DNA of 64,000 nucleotides from Bacillota bacterium (GCA_040767525.1 JAXGOJ010000001.1:96852-160851), one strand, 5' to 3'; counted from the first letter of the stretch, positions 658 through 11,339 are shown. The notes: generated by a model not told the origin, from the sequence alone. Made by a program: numbers and translations.

Positions 658-1748
658 ATGGCCCAATGTATTCGTTTGTTTAACCGGAGGCAAACCACGC
701 CTGTTAGGTGCGGGAGTGTAACCATTGGGGGAAATGCCCCAATATCCATCCAAACCATGACCAAGTGTGATACCAGGGATGTTGGGACTACTGTAGCCCA
801 GATCCAAAAAGCAGTATCTTGCGGCGCTGATATGGTTCGGGTGGCAGTGGTTAATAACGAAGATGCCAAAGCAATTGCCGAGATAAAAGAGAGTGTGCCA
901 TGCCCCATAGTTGCAGATATTCACTTTGATTACAGACTGGCACTGGCGTCTATGGAAGCCGGCGCAGATAAAGTCAGGGTTAACCCGGGCAATATTGGTG
1001 GGCGGGATTCATTGCTGAAAGTAGCCAGGAAAGCTAAATCCTTGGGTGCCGCAATAAGGATCGGTATCAATGCAGGCTCTCTGGAGAAAGACATTCTTGC
1101 CCGCTATGGGTCGCCGGGGCCGAAGCCATGGTGGAAAGCGCCAGAAAACACCTGGCGTATCTGGAGGATTACGGAATCGACGGAATAGTGTTGTCCCTTA
1201 AATCGTCCCGGGTAAGAGATACTGTTGAAGCATACAGACTCATGGCTGAATATACCCAGTGGTCGTTTCACATAGGAATTACAGAGGCAGTACCTGGGCT
1301 GCGGGCATCGCTAAGTCGGCTGCAGGAATAGGCACATTAATTGCCCTTGGAATAGGGGACACTGTAAGGGTCTCCCTGACAGAACCTTCATTTCTTGAAG
1401 TAGAAACTGCAAAAGATATTCTTCAGTCTATGGAAGCAAGACTTTTCATTCGACATAATATCATGTCCTACATGCGGGCGAACGCAAGTTGATCTGATTC
1501 CTATCGCAGAACAAGTTGCCCGGGGGCTAAGAGGGCTTAGAGTGCCGGTTAAAGTTGCTGTAATGGGTTGCCCTGTTAACGGCCCGGGTGAAGCCAGGGA
1601 AGCAGATATCGGCGTTGCTTGCGGGCGTGAAGGAGGCATTTTGTTCTCCCAGGGCAAAGTACTTGGTAGAGTAAGGAGCGATGAGATTGTAGATGCCCTT
1701 CTTGAACTTGCAGCCAGATATGCAGAATTTCCGGAGGGAGTAAAGTGA
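658..1748 (+). CDS. ispG: 4-hydroxy-3-methylbut-2-enyl diphosphate synthase IspG (at least 3 apparent frameshifts)
   Basis: Pieces in different frames: ISIQTMTK, VADIHFDYRLAL, RVNPGNIG, IRIGINAGSL, GIGDTVRVSL, ISCPTCGRT, VMGCPVNGPGEA (4Fe-4S Cys). Confidence 0.93.
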
Positions 1749-4700
1749 GCCGTATTATCGTAACACCTTCCAGTAAGGATTTTCGTCTGAGCAATATTGC
1801 TCAGGCCCTGGGCTTAGAGGAAGGCCGCATTGTAGAATGTCTTAAAGTAATGTCGATAACTGTGAACACCGAAGAAGCAGCCTGGTCCATTTCCCTTGAT
1901 GTGCATAGCGAAGAGGTATGGGCGAAACAAGCATCGTTGCTGTCACTGGATGATTTTGAGCTATGTCTGACGAGAATAGGCCAAGAGCTGAGAAACAATT
2001 ATCCTGGCTTGGAAACAGTACGCTGGGAACTTTCTGAAACTCACCAGAAACACCTGACTGAAACAACGAGCAAATCTACTGACCCAAAATTATACACACG
2101 CGACCGGCTAGGGGATAGTGTGCTCCTTGGGAGAGCCATCCGAACCCATCCTGTTCCGCTAAGTGAAATATCAGGCGGTGAAAGAGACAGCGTGACGGTA
2201 ATGGGACAGATAGTGGAAATAACTTGGAAACAGGCCCAGTCAGGAGATATGTACGGTTCTTTTGTTTTGACAGATGGATCCGGCTCAGTAGATGCAAGGG
2301 CCTTCCCCAAAGAAGGGAAGATAGACGAAATTCAGGAAGGGGCCTGGGTCCTGGTAAGAGGGCGTGCCAGAATTGACAGGCTGGATTCGGAACCTGTGCT
2401 CATTTGCAATGACATTTGCTTATCTCTTCCTGAATTAAGACAGGATGTATTCCCTGAAAAGCGGGTTGAACTGCACCTTCACACCAAAATGAGCGCCCTG
2501 GCTTCAGTTTTGGACCTGGGAAAAGCTATAGCCACAGCCGCGCGGTGGGGACACACCGCAATGGCAATTACAGATCACGGCATAGTACAAGCCTTTCCTG
2601 AAGCATTCCGCTTGGGGAAGAAGTACGGTGTTAAAATCCTATTAGGCCTCGAAGGTTACCTTGTTGAAGATGATGAGAAGGGACAAGCCTTTCACATAAT
2701 ACTGCTTGCCAGGAACAAACAGGGCCTCAGAAACTTGTATGAGCTGGTAACCTTGTCTCACCTTAAACATTTTTACAAAACACCCAGGATACCAAGGCAG
2801 CTTCTGAATGATAAGAAAGAGGGCTTGATTATTGGTTCCGCTTGCGAAGCGGGGGAACTATTCCAGGCCGTAATGGCAGGAAAAGACGAGAAAGAATTGA
2901 TGAAAATAGCCAATTTTTACGATTACCTCGAGATTCAGCCTTTGACAAATAACTCATTCCTTATAGACACAGGAGCTGTCCCAGGCGAAGAAAGCCTGAT
3001 AGAGATCAATAAAAAGATCTACGATTTAAGCAAAAAACTAAACAAACCTTGTGTAGCTACAGGGGATGTCCATTACGTAGACCCCGAAGACGAAATATAC
3101 AGAAGGGTGCTTCTTTCAGGCAAGGGCATGAGCAACAACGGAGAACGGCCTGTTCCCCTGCATTTTAGGACAACCTGTGAGTTTCTGGCGGAAGTTGAAT
3201 CCTATTTGGGCAATGAAGCTGCCAGGGAAGTTGTGATCACTAATCCTCAGGCTATAGCTGATTCAGTAGAGAACCTGGCTCCAATCCCTGAAGGTTTCTT
3301 TTACCCAACCCTTGAAAACTCTGACGAGATTTTAAGAAATCTCACGGAAAAAGGGGCATATCAGGTATTTGGTGACAATATACCTGATATGGTACGCCAG
3401 CGCTTGGACAAAGAACTTTCTGCCATCATTGGAAACGGCTTTTCCTCTTTATATCTTATTGCTATCAAAATGGTTGAAAAGTCCCTGGCAGACGGGTATT
3501 TGGTGGGCTCCCGCGGTTCTGTGGGTTCATCATTGGTAGCCCGGCTTACCGGTATTACCGAGGTCAATCCCTTCCTCCTCATTACGTGTGCCCAGAATGC
3601 CACTTAACAAGATTCATCCAGGATGGGTCATATGGGTCAGGATTTGATCTGCCTGCAATGAAGTGCCCCGATTGTGGCTATGAGCTCTTACGGGACGGCC
3701 AGGACATACCTTTTGAGACCTTTATGGGGTTTTCAGGAGAAAAAGTACCTGATATTGACTTGAATTTTTCAGGGGAAGAGCAAGGGGAGATGTTCAGGTT
3801 TGCCTCAGAATTGCTGGGAAAAAAGAACGTATACAGAGCAGGGACTATCAGCACAATTGCGAGAAAAACCGCCTTTGGTTTTGTCAAGCATTACGCCGAA
3901 GACAATGGCAAAGTATTCAGGCGGGCTGAAGAAGTCAGGCTCTCAAAAGGAATAGAGGGGGTAAAGCGTACAACAGGGCAGCACCCTGGTGGAGTCATGG
4001 TCATACCCAAAGGCATGGATGTTCTTGATTTTACACCTCTGCAACACCCTGCAGATGACAGGAACTCAGAGTCCATAACCACCCATTTTGACTACAACTC
4101 AATTTCCGGGCACCTTGTCAAAGTTGATATTCTGGGCCATGACGACCCTACTGTACTCAAAATTCTTCATGAGTTGACGGGTGTTGATCCCACTAAAATA
4201 CCTATGAACGATCCTGAAACCCTCAGACTGTTTTCAGGCGATGATCCGGATAAGGTTGTTGGCATTCCCGAATTTGGCACCAGGTTTGTCAGGAACATGC
4301 TGTCTGAAACAAGGCCAAAGTGCTTTTCTGATTTGGTCCGGATCTCAGGGCTTTCCCACGGAACAGATGTGTGGGCCAACAACGCCCGGGATCTTATCCG
4401 GGACAAAGTTGCTACCCTTGATCAAGTGATCGCCACCCGTGAAGACATATTTTTATACTTGATGACACTTGGAGTAAAGCCGGCGACGGCCTTCGGAATA
4501 GCCGAAAAAGTAAGAAAGGGAAAACCGCTTTCTAACGATGACATCAGTAGTATGAAAGCAGTATCGGTGCCTGACTGGTACATTGACTCATGCAGGAAAA
4601 TCAGTTATCTGTTCCCCAAGGCTCATGCCGCTGCATACGTCACAAACTCATTCAGAATAGCCTATTTCAAAGTTCACCATCCTCTGGCTTATTACTCAAC

Positions 4701-5133
4701 TTACTTTACCTTTGCAGGTGCATCATTAACCACAGACTTTATGTACCTGGACCCTGGCGAATGGAAAGAATACATTCAAAAAGTCAACGGTAATTCCAGG
4801 TCTACAGCCAGAGAACAAGACGTGGCAGGAGCCCTTGAACTGGCACTGGAAATGGTTCAAAGAGGATTTGCTTTTGGCCGGCATGACTTGTACGCGTCCC
4901 ATTCTGTAAGGTACATACCTGAAGGTTCCGAACTGATTCCGCCCTTTACCTCAATTCCCGGACTGGGAAACCAGGCAGCAACAGCCATTGCCGGGGCAAG
5001 AGAAATGGGTGAATTTGACTCTGTTGAAGATTTTAGAAAGAGAACGGGCCTTGGAAAGAAAATATGCGAGGCCATGAGAAAATACGGCCTATTTGATGGT
5101 CTGTCGGAAACAGCACAGTTGGCCCTATTCTGA
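1745..5133 (+). CDS. polC: DNA polymerase III alpha subunit, PolC type, without the exonuclease insertion (one frameshift near 3570)
   Basis: OB fold, PHP motifs (HLHTKMS, ITDHG, TGDVHY), GSRGSVGSS, Zn finger CPEC..CPDC, KVPDIDLNFSGE, RTTGQHPGG, YLFPKAHAAAY. Adding one C to the run in gtcaatcccttcct restores EVNPLPPHYVCPEC. Confidence 0.95.
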
Positions 5134-8100: not shown

Positions 8101-8127
8101 CTCACATACCTCTTGGAGGCAAACACA

Positions 8128-9069
8128 ATGCACACCATGGTAGTTGCCCTGGGCGGAAACGCTATTTTGCAAAAGGGCGACAAAGGCACAGCAATGGATC
8201 AAAGAAGGAACATAGAAAAGACCGCAGTCCAACTCGCCAATCTTGTGCAAAAGGGCTACAAGCTGATTATCACACATGGTAATGGGCCACAGGTTGGGAA
8301 CATCCTCATTCAAAACGAAGCAGCCAGAAGTAAAGTCCCTGAAATGCCAATGGACATTTGCGGCGCTCAAAGCCAGGGGATGATCGGGTACATGCTACAG
8401 ATGTACATGCAGAATGCACTCAACAAGCGCAATCTGCAGATACCTGTTTCCACGCTTATTACCCAAACTCTGGTGGATAAAGACGACCCTGCCTTTTGCA
8501 ACCCCACAAAACCTGTGGGCCCTTTTTACTGTGAGAGCAAGTCTCAGGAAAGAGTAAGGAACTACGGAGAAACATGGATTGAAGACGCGGGACGGGGGTG
8601 GAGAAGGGTTGTGCCCTCTCCTGAACCAAAATACATTATTGAAACACCATCCATAAAAGCACTTGTGGAGCAAGGCCACGCCGTTATATGCAGCGGCGGT
8701 GGAGGAATTCCTGTTATCGTGGGCCAGGATGGATGTCTTCAAGGTGTAGAGGCTGTAATTGAGAAAGATCTGAGCGCCGAAAGATTGGCTACGTCGTTGG
8801 GAGCTGATAGCCTGCTTATCCTCACCAACGTAAATGGCGCAGCTCTGGATTATACAGCTTCAGGCCAGGTTTGGCTGGGCCGTGTGAAGATACCTGAACT
8901 TTTAGGATACCTGGCTGAGGGCCATTTTCTGGAGGGAAGCATGGGCCCGAAAGTCAGAGCAATCATAAGATTCATTCAACATGGCGGAAAATACGCAGTC
9001 ATCGCTTCTTTAGATAGGGCTGAAGAAGCAGTCAGGGGAGAAACCGGAACCATATTGACCCCTGACTGA
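8128..9069 (+). CDS. arcC: Carbamate kinase
   Basis: VVALGGNA, THGNGPQVG, GAQSQGMIGY, NPTKPVGPFY, RRVVPSP, GGGGIPV, GSMGPK. Confidence 0.95.
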   Translation: MHTMVVALGGNAILQKGDKGTAMDQRRNIEKTAVQLANLVQKGYKLIITHGNGPQVGNILIQNEAARSKVPEMPMDICGAQSQGMIGYMLQMYMQNALNKRNLQIPVSTLITQTLVDKDDPAFCNPTKPVGPFYCESKSQERVRNYGETWIEDAGRGWRRVVPSPEPKYIIETPSIKALVEQGHAVICSGGGGIPVIVGQDGCLQGVEAVIEKDLSAERLATSLGADSLLILTNVNGAALDYTASGQVWLGRVKIPELLGYLAEGHFLEGSMGPKVRAIIRFIQHGGKYAVIASLDRAEEAVRGETGTILTPD

Positions 9070-9101: not shown

Positions 9102-9127
9102 GTAGCCTCTATGTGCGCGGAGGCTAC
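9102..9127. terminator. Hairpin between convergent arcC and ddh
   Basis: gtagcctct / ggaggctac 9-bp stem. Confidence 0.55.
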
Positions 9128-9149: not shown

Positions 9150-10037
9150 TTAAACCAAATTCTTGACCAGAGTTGCACGATCACCGGGTAGAAGATCAAC
9201 TGGGGGGATTTCTCCCATAACATAACACCCGGGTTCCAGGCGCATAGAGGCACGGGCCGCAGAAATCAGGATCTGGGCAGTAGCTGAAGGATTGGTAAGC
9301 CTCATCCTTAATTCGAGCAACTGATTATTGGCCGTACCTGAGCTGCCGATTCTTTCTACCTGCACACCGTGGCCGGTAACCCTGACTTTTTCCACATCCT
9401 CAACTTCGGTCACTCTTGTAACATCATGCACAAAATACGGGTCATCCTTAATCTTCCCGCTTATTTCATCGAAGTTGGCACCTTCTTCAAGCTCTATGTA
9501 AACATCCCGGTAGTGCTGTCCGTATCCTGTAGGAAGGGTCATAGAGATTGCATCTTTAACCCCGGGAATGGATTTTGCTGCCACACTATGTCCCATGCTC
9601 ATGCCCGGGCCAAAGTTCGTATAGGTAATGCCATGTGGCGCTATGGCCATGAATAACATGCGAATAACTGAGTCTGTGCCCGGATCCCATCCTGCACCGA
9701 TCACCGCAGTCCGGCCATTGTCTTTGGCATACTTGCTCAGTTTTTTCTTCAGCAAGAGCATCGAATCCCCATGAATATCGTAGCCATCGACTGTATTAAT
9801 CCCTTTGGCGAGATAGGCGGGGGCTACCGATGGAATCAGCCGGGAAGGAATGGTCAAAACAGCTACATCTACCTGGTTCAGCTCCTCAACCCGCCTGGTA
9901 AATCGAACTCCAGGGTTTTCAATGTTGCGAATCTCAACCACACCTGCAAGTTCCATGTCATTGGCCTGTCTTATACACTCTACCGCCTCTTTACCCACGT
10001 TGCCATAACCCACGACGCACACTCTGATTTTTTTCAT
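9150..10037 (-). CDS. ddh: meso-diaminopimelate D-dehydrogenase, Symbiobacterium-like type B
   Basis: VVGYGNVG, TVDGYDIHG, AGWDPGTDS, ITYTNFGPGMSMGHS, DPYF, GHGV..ER. It follows the S. thermophilum enzyme sequence as I recall it. Confidence 0.92.
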   Translation of the reverse strand: MKKIRVCVVGYGNVGKEAVECIRQANDMELAGVVEIRNIENPGVRFTRRVEELNQVDVAVLTIPSRLIPSVAPAYLAKGINTVDGYDIHGDSMLLLKKKLSKYAKDNGRTAVIGAGWDPGTDSVIRMLFMAIAPHGITYTNFGPGMSMGHSVAAKSIPGVKDAISMTLPTGYGQHYRDVYIELEEGANFDEISGKIKDDPYFVHDVTRVTEVEDVEKVRVTGHGVQVERIGSSGTANNQLLELRMRLTNPSATAQILISAARASMRLEPGCYVMGEIPPVDLLPGDRATLVKNLV

Positions 10038-10130
10038 GTCTAAGAACCTCCGAGTAGTTACTTTTCTTTGCAATTGCATTAACCTATCTATTGCCAAAAG
10101 CAAACATTCCAGGGTTCAGGATTTCTTTTC

Positions 10131-11204
10131 TTACTCACCCAATGAGGCTCTAATCACTACCTTTGCCAAATCAGGCACAAGATGAATCCACAATAACCCT
10201 TCCTCCAAACCCTCTCCATTATCGCCTATATGAAACTGGATGGGTTCTTTCAAAGATGGTTTACTCCAGGTTCCCTCACACATTACACCGTTTGAGAAAA
10301 ACAGGGCCTTTCCTTTCCCGGTAACATCCATGTCAACTTCTATGGCTTTTCCTTGGAGATATTCAGTATACACCTGCAAAAAGGCCAGGGTTTTGGGGGC
10401 GATTGATTCGCCCTTATCATTCACATGTTCCCGGCCGTTGATGAAGCGAATGTATCCTGAGTCTTCGTACCTATACTCAACCAGGTTAGGATACTTCGAA
10501 CTGTTAGAAAAGGCATACGAAACACCCAGGGCAGGTGTACCCTGTAATTCCCCGGTTGCGTAAAACTCAGGGTGAAAAGAGGCAAACCCTCGTCTGGAAG
10601 CGCCCTGTTCTATCTTAGTTATAGAAGTATACAAGTTGTCCGGGGCAGACCTGTCGTTGCTTCTCCAGAAGCATTCTCCGGCAGAATAAATCTCGTCCAG
10701 GCTCTTTGTTTTATGAGCCCTGATTATCTCAAAACTGTCTTCTGAGCCTCCACAATGGGCAAAAGGAATATCAAAGCCTACAGCTATTTGAACAAGAGGC
10801 TTTCTTGCGCTTCTCACAGGCCCGATCTTTTCCACTTTCTTATCAAACCCAGCCATAAGCCTGGTCATACCTCCCTCAGCAGGAACCTCAAAAACCACCG
10901 CCGCTTCAGAAAGGCCTGATTGAGGCCTGCCACTTGGGTTATTGCCAATACTAACCAAAAACATCCCCTCAAGAGCGTCTTCATCTGGCTCTTGAGGTTC
11001 GGCCGGGTCCGGAACAAGACTCGAGCCTGGATCCGCAGAAGGAGGCCCGGTGCTGTTGCGCCCTCGTGTGCAGCCTGAGAGGTAAAGAGAAAATAACATA
11101 AAGATCGCAAGGCTCAGGGCGGCAAAACCCATGACTTTTTTGCGATTACCTGCTTGAAGCAATCTTTGAGGCGAACTATCAGGACGCTTTGCTCTCATCA
11201 CCAT
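10131..11204 (-). CDS. DUF3048 domain protein, probable lipoprotein
   Basis: Lipobox-like LSGC, then GNNPSGRPQSGLSEA.VVFE.PAEGGMTR, IGPVRSAR and RSAPDNLY. Confidence 0.85.
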   Translation of the reverse strand: MVMRAKRPDSSPQRLLQAGNRKKVMGFAALSLAIFMLFSLYLSGCTRGRNSTGPPSADPGSSLVPDPAEPQEPDEDALEGMFLVSIGNNPSGRPQSGLSEAAVVFEVPAEGGMTRLMAGFDKKVEKIGPVRSARKPLVQIAVGFDIPFAHCGGSEDSFEIIRAHKTKSLDEIYSAGECFWRSNDRSAPDNLYTSITKIEQGASRRGFASFHPEFYATGELQGTPALGVSYAFSNSSKYPNLVEYRYEDSGYIRFINGREHVNDKGESIAPKTLAFLQVYTEYLQGKAIEVDMDVTGKGKALFFSNGVMCEGTWSKPSLKEPIQFHIGDNGEGLEEGLLWIHLVPDLAKVVIRASLGE

Positions 11205-11339
11205 AACAAAATCCCCTTTACTTAAATGCAAATAATATATGATTTGCCGGACATTGCTCTTTTCCTCTAAACCACCGGTTATTCCAAAAGACATGTCACT
11301 TACACAAAACCAAACATAGTGTTAGTAGAGGTGATTTTA

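Follow-up and report, generated by a model that had tools for sequence, protein, structure and literature searches.

The 64,000-nucleotide stretch of a Bacillota genome analysed here (GCA_040767525.1, JAXGOJ010000001.1:96852-160851; the whole stretch is called the window, and positions are counted from its first nucleotide) carries on its minus strand a ddh gene predicted to encode a type-II meso-diaminopimelate dehydrogenase (DAPDH). The product has Glu35-Ile36 at the cofactor site where the S. thermophilum enzyme (StDAPDH) has Arg35-Arg36, and it probably prefers nicotinamide adenine dinucleotide, NAD(H), to the phosphorylated cofactor NADP(H). The gene was intact, with its ATG at 10037-10035, its stop codon at 9152-9150 and 295 codons, and homologues of the product use the same start methionine. 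The features of gene and product were as follows.

9150-10037, minus strand: ddh, type-II meso-diaminopimelate (meso-DAP) dehydrogenase of 295 amino acids, stop codon included (TIGR01921, PF16654, 3wb9, AlphaFold2 model)
10047-10051, minus strand: Shine-Dalgarno sequence GGAGG, read directly from the sequence, 9 nt 5' of the ATG at 10037
9993-10010, minus strand: dinucleotide-binding motif G10-Y-G-N-V-G15 in the beta1-alphaA turn, with G10, G12, N13 and G15 nearly invariant
9936-9956, minus strand: Rossmann strand beta-2, residues 28-34 (ELAGVV.), assigned by DSSP on the AlphaFold2 model
9930-9935, minus strand: E35-I36 in place of StDAPDH R35-R36, the predicted NAD(H) determinant (alignments, clade conservation and codons)
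9927-9929, minus strand: R37, a basic residue two positions past E35 with a putative role, present in 8 of the 32 members of the Glu35 clade described below
9840-9848, minus strand: P64-S65-R66 with the type-II Arg, equivalent to StDAPDH P69-T70-R71 (R in 227 of 231 sequences)
9825-9827, minus strand: V71, equivalent to StDAPDH Y76, a lineage background residue not specific to the Glu35 type (231-sequence alignment)
9588-9599, minus strand: S147-M-G-H150 substrate/catalytic loop, equivalent to StDAPDH S151-M152-G153-H154 (231-sequence alignment)

An earlier sequence-only reading of this DNA had proposed a type-B (type-II) meso-DAP dehydrogenase, and the homology searches bore this out. The product matched the NCBIfam equivalog TIGR01921 at 277.9 bits (cut-off 180.6), with residues 1-295 aligned to profile positions 1-324, and contained a DAPDH_C domain (PF16654; 69 bits against a cut-off of 30). 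Its best solved relative in a HMMER search of the PDB was the S. thermophilum enzyme (3wb9/3wbb/3wbf, E=8e-102, 54% identity), which was followed by five more type-II entries, the type-II matches having E values of 1e-102 to 1e-74; type-I enzymes of C. glutamicum, U. thermosphaericus and C. tetani matched more weakly (1e-33 to 1e-24). The length of 295 residues is that of the short type-II form (about 300 residues), which is without the two dimerisation helices of type I. An AlphaFold2 model built from an 80-sequence alignment had a mean predicted local distance difference test score of 93.9 and superimposed on 3wb9_A in Foldseek with E=1.9e-43, a template modelling (TM) score of 0.95 and a root-mean-square deviation of 1.6 Å.

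The active site was also preserved. The StDAPDH residues reported to serve substrate binding or catalysis (D92, W121, F146, S151, M152, G153, H154, T171, R181, H227 and N253; list taken from PMC7424261 and PMC7084900) were identical at all 11 positions in a 231-sequence MAFFT alignment, and nothing pointed to decay or neofunctionalisation there. All tests of homology and of the active site place the product in the DAPDH family and in its type-II subfamily, and the predicted catalysis is the oxidative deamination and reductive amination of meso-DAP. One representative homologue of 295 residues (P0253) had D-L-G-D in place of the otherwise invariant S-M-G-H loop and K-Q at positions 35 and 36; it may be an inactive or re-purposed relative of the DAPDHs.

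In StDAPDH the C2-phosphate of NADP+ is contacted by Arg35 and Arg36 (PMC7424261). After correction of the numbering for a 6-residue tag in the 3wb9 chain, HMMER aligned residues 1-39 of the window's enzyme to native StDAPDH gap-free and placed E35/I36 on R35/R36, R66 on R71 and V71 on Y76; MAFFT alignments of 231 and 332 sequences gave the same columns. The substitution claimed by the sequence-only reading was therefore recovered by three alignments, and the coordinates it gave were all correct (GAG for Glu35 at 9935-9933, Val71 at 9827-9825); codon 36 is ATT (Ile) at 9932-9930. The type-II Arg, said there to be kept, was indeed present as R66. In the model, beta1 spans residues 4-9 and alphaA residues 13-24, forming a Rossmann domain with its GxGxxG motif, and Glu35 is the first residue past beta-2 and 20 residues past G15, so that the alignment with StDAPDH and other type-II enzymes put it inside the cofactor-specificity position. 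In Rossmann folds this is the classical site of the acidic residue that determines NAD use, and acidity there disfavours the 2'-phosphate.

Glu35 thus has the location of the acidic residue in NAD(H)-type Rossmann sites (end of beta-2, about 18-20 residues past GxGxxG), and the NADP-binding residues of the DAPDH family (R35/R36 in type II, T35/R36/R37 in type I) were absent. Among basic residues near the expected 2'-phosphate position of the ligand-free model, R35 and R36 are gone and R37 is present. As far as sequence comparison can tell, the NADP+ determinant written into the definition of Enzyme Commission (EC) class 1.4.1.16 is missing from this protein, though it is a family member by descent and chemistry. 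The engineered triple replacement R35E/R36V/Y76V, which the sequence-only reading had named as a cofactor-switch set, proved genuine: it switched StDAPDH from NADP(H) to NAD(H) (PMC5542762).

The distribution of the pair was followed in the same 231 sequences, which included the 120 best database homologues and 109 genome loci. Positions 35/36 were R-R in 177, E-I in 23 and E-V in 18, with few other states. In a tree that included the specificity loop, the E-[IV] sequences came together in a single clade (32 distinct proteins, support 0.91), which lay within an Arg-Arg background and was joined to an Arg-Arg sister group of 39 with a support of 0.99. Glu35 was present in all 32 members, position 36 was Ile in 18 and Val in 14, and position 37 was Leu in 17, Arg in 8 and Cys in 4. 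The loop at 37-42 was rebuilt in the clade, with the consensus E-[IV]-x-D-V..P and a one-residue deletion where the sister group reads R-R-A-V-G-E-N, and position 48 carried a clade-specific basic residue (K/R) against T in the sister group. The lowest pairwise identity among clade members was 62%, and the Glu35 codon varied between genomes (GAA and GAG). Invariance of Glu35 down to that identity, together with the two codons, excludes an error of assembly and points to purifying selection; judged by conservation and codon use, the feature is selected and not accidental.

The NAD-type fingerprint of the sequence-only reading had also included Val71, and this part did not stand. In the Y76-equivalent column Tyr was a minority state (24 sequences, against 73 with Val, 46 with Thr and 27 with Ile), and Arg-Arg enzymes also had V, I, L, M or T there. 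Since Val also occurs in that column in enzymes that keep both arginines, Val71 is not part of the linked fingerprint, and only the E35-I36 pair was supported.

A family-wide survey used full-length representatives of 50%-identity clusters drawn from 1.8 billion proteins. Glu occupied position 35 in only about four clusters (E-L, E-Q, E-P and E-I); the remaining representatives had R-R if type II and [TS]-R-R if type I. All six inspected type-II structures were Arg-Arg (S. thermophilum, P. gingivalis, P. timonensis, B. thermozeamaize wild type and mutant, and 8i78), a tally that leaves out PDB 24xh/24xi, a DAPDH of 311 residues. Scattered E, D or S variants suggested by pairwise tblastn in Bacteroidota and Verrucomicrobia were discarded, as most were gap artefacts that became Arg-Arg in the multiple alignment. 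Isolated cases without Arg-Arg were found in a metagenome-assembled genome (MAG) of Lachnospiraceae (D-A) and elsewhere. Two related DAPDHs of 299 residues in genus g7 (L111/P0101 and L113/P0103), which lie outside the main Glu35 clade, had H-S and E-I at these positions.

The ddh gene is flanked by two conserved neighbours.

10131-11294, minus strand: DUF3048 gene (PF11258/PF17479), upstream of ddh and separated from it by a 93-nt gap
8113-9069, plus strand: carbamate-kinase-like gene (PF00696), downstream of ddh and convergent with it, marking the orthologous locus

The DUF3048-ddh pairing recurred across genera and cofactor types (L002, L004, L090, L091, L093, L096, L101 and L103-L105), which hints at a cell-envelope link or at co-transcription. 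Synteny with the carbamate-kinase-like gene was found for Glu35-type loci (L002-L005, L090, L103-L105, L107-L110 and L112) and for Arg-Arg loci (L091, L096 and L101). The full arrangement, DUF3048-ddh convergent with the carbamate-kinase-like gene and dacA, was shared between genomes with the Glu35 type and Arg-Arg relatives in a sister family and another genus (L091, L096, L101 and L093). This shared locus makes the Glu35-type gene a positional orthologue of ordinary ddh and not a new paralogue.

The genes around ddh encode PolC, the S-component of an energy-coupling factor transporter, a D-Ala-D-Ala carboxypeptidase (dacA), isoleucyl-tRNA synthetase (IleRS) and PyrB. The PolC-like DNA polymerase III alpha gene of the window (1745-5133, plus strand) was represented by two overlapping open reading frames, 1745-3607 and 3586-5133. 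A scan for ddh promoters and terminators returned neither a sigma-70-like promoter nor a convincing terminator. Between ddh and the convergent carbamate-kinase-like gene, at 9102-9127, lies a perfect 8-bp inverted repeat, GTAGCCTC ... GAGGCTAC, with a 10-nt loop; it went unscored in the terminator scan because its loop exceeds 8 nt and no T-run follows. In sister genera no DAP/lysine operon was found round ddh, only a loose proximity to dapF with DsbD and thioredoxin genes between them.

The window belongs to a 1.85-Mb MAG that is 75% complete; among its named relatives, MAGs of 'Candidatus Fermentithermobacillaceae' from anaerobic digesters are the closest. Members of the class, DTU015 (Ca. 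Fermentithermobacillia), are predicted to be thermophilic anaerobes that ferment peptides, amino acids and N-acetylglucosamine (PMC10215811). One ddh and a solitary dapB were present in the genome; dapF, lysA and DapL were not found in this 75%-complete assembly. A 95%-complete genome of the same genus has both dapF and lysA, so these gaps were ascribed to the incomplete assembly, the idea of a minimal pathway was dropped, and conclusions on the pathway were drawn from relatives only. The DapB encoded by the window's genome (L119:5868-6707, contig 7) has 30 extra residues inserted past the GxGxxG helix, and its beta-2 ends in an Asp (..IICGVD).

Among sampled relatives of the same GTDB family, 23 of 24 gave a ddh match. 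In one of these, G013, the gene was split into two adjacent pieces (G013:C5:148969-149866, L115) covering profile positions 1-168 and 191-323; the gene may be frameshifted or a pseudogene, or the assembly may be wrong at this point. In family genomes with ddh the best matches to the LL-DAP aminotransferase model scored 207-307 bits, which indicates generic aminotransferases. G020, the sole member that lacks ddh, encodes a true DapL (508 bits) beside dapF, and most other families of the class have DapL beside dapF and lack ddh, so that Ddh and bona fide DapL were almost mutually exclusive across the class (relatives G001-G040). DapH, the marker of the acetylase route, was absent from 41 of 41 genomes. 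With this complementarity and no DapH, Ddh is the family's only recognisable means of turning tetrahydrodipicolinate into meso-DAP.

On this evidence we consider it rather probable that ddh encodes a functional biosynthetic type-II meso-DAP dehydrogenase whose cofactor pocket was rebuilt from NADP-type to NAD-type and kept so by selection. The biosynthetic role is probable because of the same locus, the lack of another recognisable meso-DAP route and the housekeeping neighbours. The preference for NAD(H) is a well-founded prediction, since Glu35 occupies the cofactor-specificity position and the acidic/aliphatic pair resembles that of the switched StDAPDH mutant. The enzyme would supply meso-DAP to peptidoglycan and lysine synthesis by reductive amination of L-2-amino-6-oxopimelate (tetrahydrodipicolinate). 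With the two guanidinium groups (R35 and R36) lost, the clamp on the 2'-phosphate would be gone; Glu35, at the C-terminus of beta-2, could form hydrogen bonds with the 2'- and 3'-hydroxyls on the adenine ribose of NAD(H) and would repel the 2'-phosphate carried by NADP(H), and Ile or Val at position 36 might pack on the adenine face as in the engineered mutant. Such an enzyme would prefer NADH, or at least use it efficiently, and reductive amination would be driven by NADH, an abundant reductant of strict fermenters in high-ammonium digesters; reliance on this NADH pool is probably the physiological reason for the change. The change arose within the Arg-Arg lineage at the same chromosomal locus, and selection has retained it in a clade of thermophilic anaerobes that live by fermentation (DTU015 / Ca. 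Fermentithermobacillia).

Several observations weigh against parts of this interpretation. In a second tree, built without the specificity loop to avoid circularity, the Glu35 sequences split into groups of 24 and 6 within the same well-supported 69-member clade, and the node separating these groups had a support of 0.47, so that the Glu35 type may not be monophyletic. A single switch from Arg-Arg to the Glu35 type is the simplest reading of the trees, and two switches or a reversal are also possible. The host genome is incomplete. In most family genomes that have Ddh, dapF is kept in the absence of a recognisable LL-DAP-forming enzyme (G001 has two copies of dapF), so a route through LL-DAP that our searches did not recognise is possible. 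The rule of the acidic residue has exceptions among Rossmann enzymes, and the report on the switched mutant gives no kinetics of that mutant on NADP(H) (PMC5542762).

A further point concerns Arg37, two residues past Glu35, which could contact the 2'-phosphate and so confer dual specificity. In E. coli DapB, a dual-specific enzyme, Glu38 and Arg39 stand side by side. The window's enzyme might likewise admit NADH through Glu35 and keep hold of the 2'-phosphate with Arg37, perhaps also with Lys16, so that NADPH would be used about equally well and the specificity would have been broadened and not switched. Relaxed natural DAPDHs do exist, the N. massiliense enzyme using both cofactors. Arg37, however, is not conserved, as it is found in the query and in a quarter of the clade (8 of 32) and position 37 is mostly Leu or Cys; the canonical phosphate ligands R35 and R36 are both gone, and the engineered Glu/Val mutant was described as switched. 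We therefore regard dual cofactor use as unlikely, but as an outcome to be reckoned with.

Much less probable is the catabolic role that the sequence-only reading had suggested, in which an NAD+-linked dehydrogenase would oxidise meso-DAP or other D-amino acids that the fermenting cells salvage from peptidoglycan or necromass. Catabolic dehydrogenases usually pass their electrons to NAD+, type-II DAPDHs take several D-amino acids and 2-oxo acids, the family retains dapF, and members of DTU015 are predicted to scavenge and ferment peptides, amino acids and N-acetylglucosamine (PMC10215811). Against this, the genome holds a single ddh copy that is the positional orthologue of Arg-Arg ddh, and the complementarity of Ddh and DapL together with the absence of DapH makes Ddh needed for meso-DAP. 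The neighbours are housekeeping or cell-wall genes (dacA, IleRS, pyrB, PolC), and no transporter or downstream catabolic gene was found among those examined. We know of no established onward degradation route for tetrahydrodipicolinate. An enzyme that still prefers NADP(H), with Glu35 merely structural and other 2'-phosphate ligands supplied by the remodelled 37-42 loop or the clade-specific K/R at position 48, is the least credible alternative, as an acidic beta-2 end is electrostatically unfavourable beside a 2'-phosphate, the same acidic/aliphatic replacement switched StDAPDH, and the six inspected type-II structures, one of them solved with NADP+, are all Arg-Arg.

The Glu35-type clade appears to be a new natural variant of an enzyme kind that is already known. 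In the literature consulted, meso-DAP dehydrogenases are treated as NADP+-dependent, as in the EC entry and for wild-type StDAPDH, and two exceptions labelled 'NAD(P)' are Arg-Arg enzymes. No natural NAD-preferring DAPDH was reported in the searchable literature, which left out many subscription papers; if the independent rewiring proposed below for this clade and for Syntrophomonas is true, dehydrogenases of meso-DAP or D-amino acids that prefer NAD(H) by nature would be described for the first time. The cost and instability of NADPH limit D-amino-acid synthesis with DAPDHs and have led groups to engineer the use of NADH, with low activity so far. A natural NAD-type clade from thermophiles with co-adapted loops would supply ready scaffolds, possibly efficient and thermostable NADH-dependent D-amino-acid dehydrogenases better than the engineered mutant, and would show which additional changes accompany a cofactor switch. 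It would also mean that an essential anabolic step of cell-wall synthesis can be moved to the NADH pool in fermenters. The complementary pattern of Ddh and DapL sharpens the pathway annotation of this uncultured class.

Compared with StDAPDH, the type-II prototype (3WB9/3WBB/3WBF), the window's enzyme is alike in length class, with two small indels only, and has the same GYGNVG motif and type-II Arg. It differs in having E35-I36 and V71 for R35-R36 and Y76 and in a beta2-alphaB loop that is 5 residues shorter; wild-type StDAPDH shows no NADH activity (PMC7084900). The engineered mutant M-StDAPDH (R35E/R36V/Y76V), an NAD(H)-dependent D-amino-acid dehydrogenase, shares with it Glu35, Val in place of Y76 and, at position 36, an aliphatic residue that is beta-branched. 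Residue 36 is Val in the mutant, as in 14 of the 32 clade members, and Ile in the window's enzyme. The mutant had an activity of 0.55 U/mg with NADH on 2-oxobutyrate and was coupled to an NAD-dependent formate dehydrogenase (PMC5542762). It is a man-made protein of low activity on the StDAPDH scaffold, whereas the window's enzyme is natural, its cofactor use is a prediction, and its loop changes (D38/V39 consensus, 1-residue deletion) appear co-evolved.

Two natural DAPDHs, one from Numidum massiliense and one from Thermosyntropha lipolytica, were published as 'NAD(P)+-dependent' and are reported to accept NAD+ (Akita et al. 2020); they resemble the window's enzyme in being type-II, thermostable and from Bacillota. 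Neither has its acidic fingerprint. The N. massiliense enzyme (NmDAPDH) keeps R36-R37 (PMC7424261) and has a 260-fold preference for NADP+ in kcat/Km, with a Km for NAD+ of 890 mM. An acidic residue 35 had been considered for the T. lipolytica enzyme and was rejected, as its sequence (P0164) reads GVVRRSSS, that is, Arg-Arg.

A natural parallel was found in the Syntrophomonadaceae. Among 122 sequences, R-R accounted for 50, Q-P for 13, E-P for 11, E-Q for 7, D-P for 6, E-L for 5 and E-K for 4, with examples without Arg-Arg (within P0122-P0241) in Syntrophomonas zehnderi (E-P, P0150), S. curvata (E-K, P0191) and S. erecta (Q-V, P0176). Judged by alignment and tree position, this is a second and larger radiation without Arg-Arg, independent of the window's clade. 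Like the window's enzyme, these are natural type-II DAPDHs of Bacillota from anaerobic digesters in which R35-R36 has been replaced, often with Glu or Asp at position 35. They differ in forming a separate branch outside the query clade, at about 50% identity, with E, D or Q at position 35 and mostly Pro at position 36. We tentatively propose, as an idea that could well go either way, that the DTU015/Fermentithermobacillaceae-like clade (E-[IV]) and many Syntrophomonas ([EDQ]-P), as strictly anaerobic lineages of thermophilic fermenters and of syntrophs, independently rewired their essential single-step formation of meso-DAP from NADPH to NADH.

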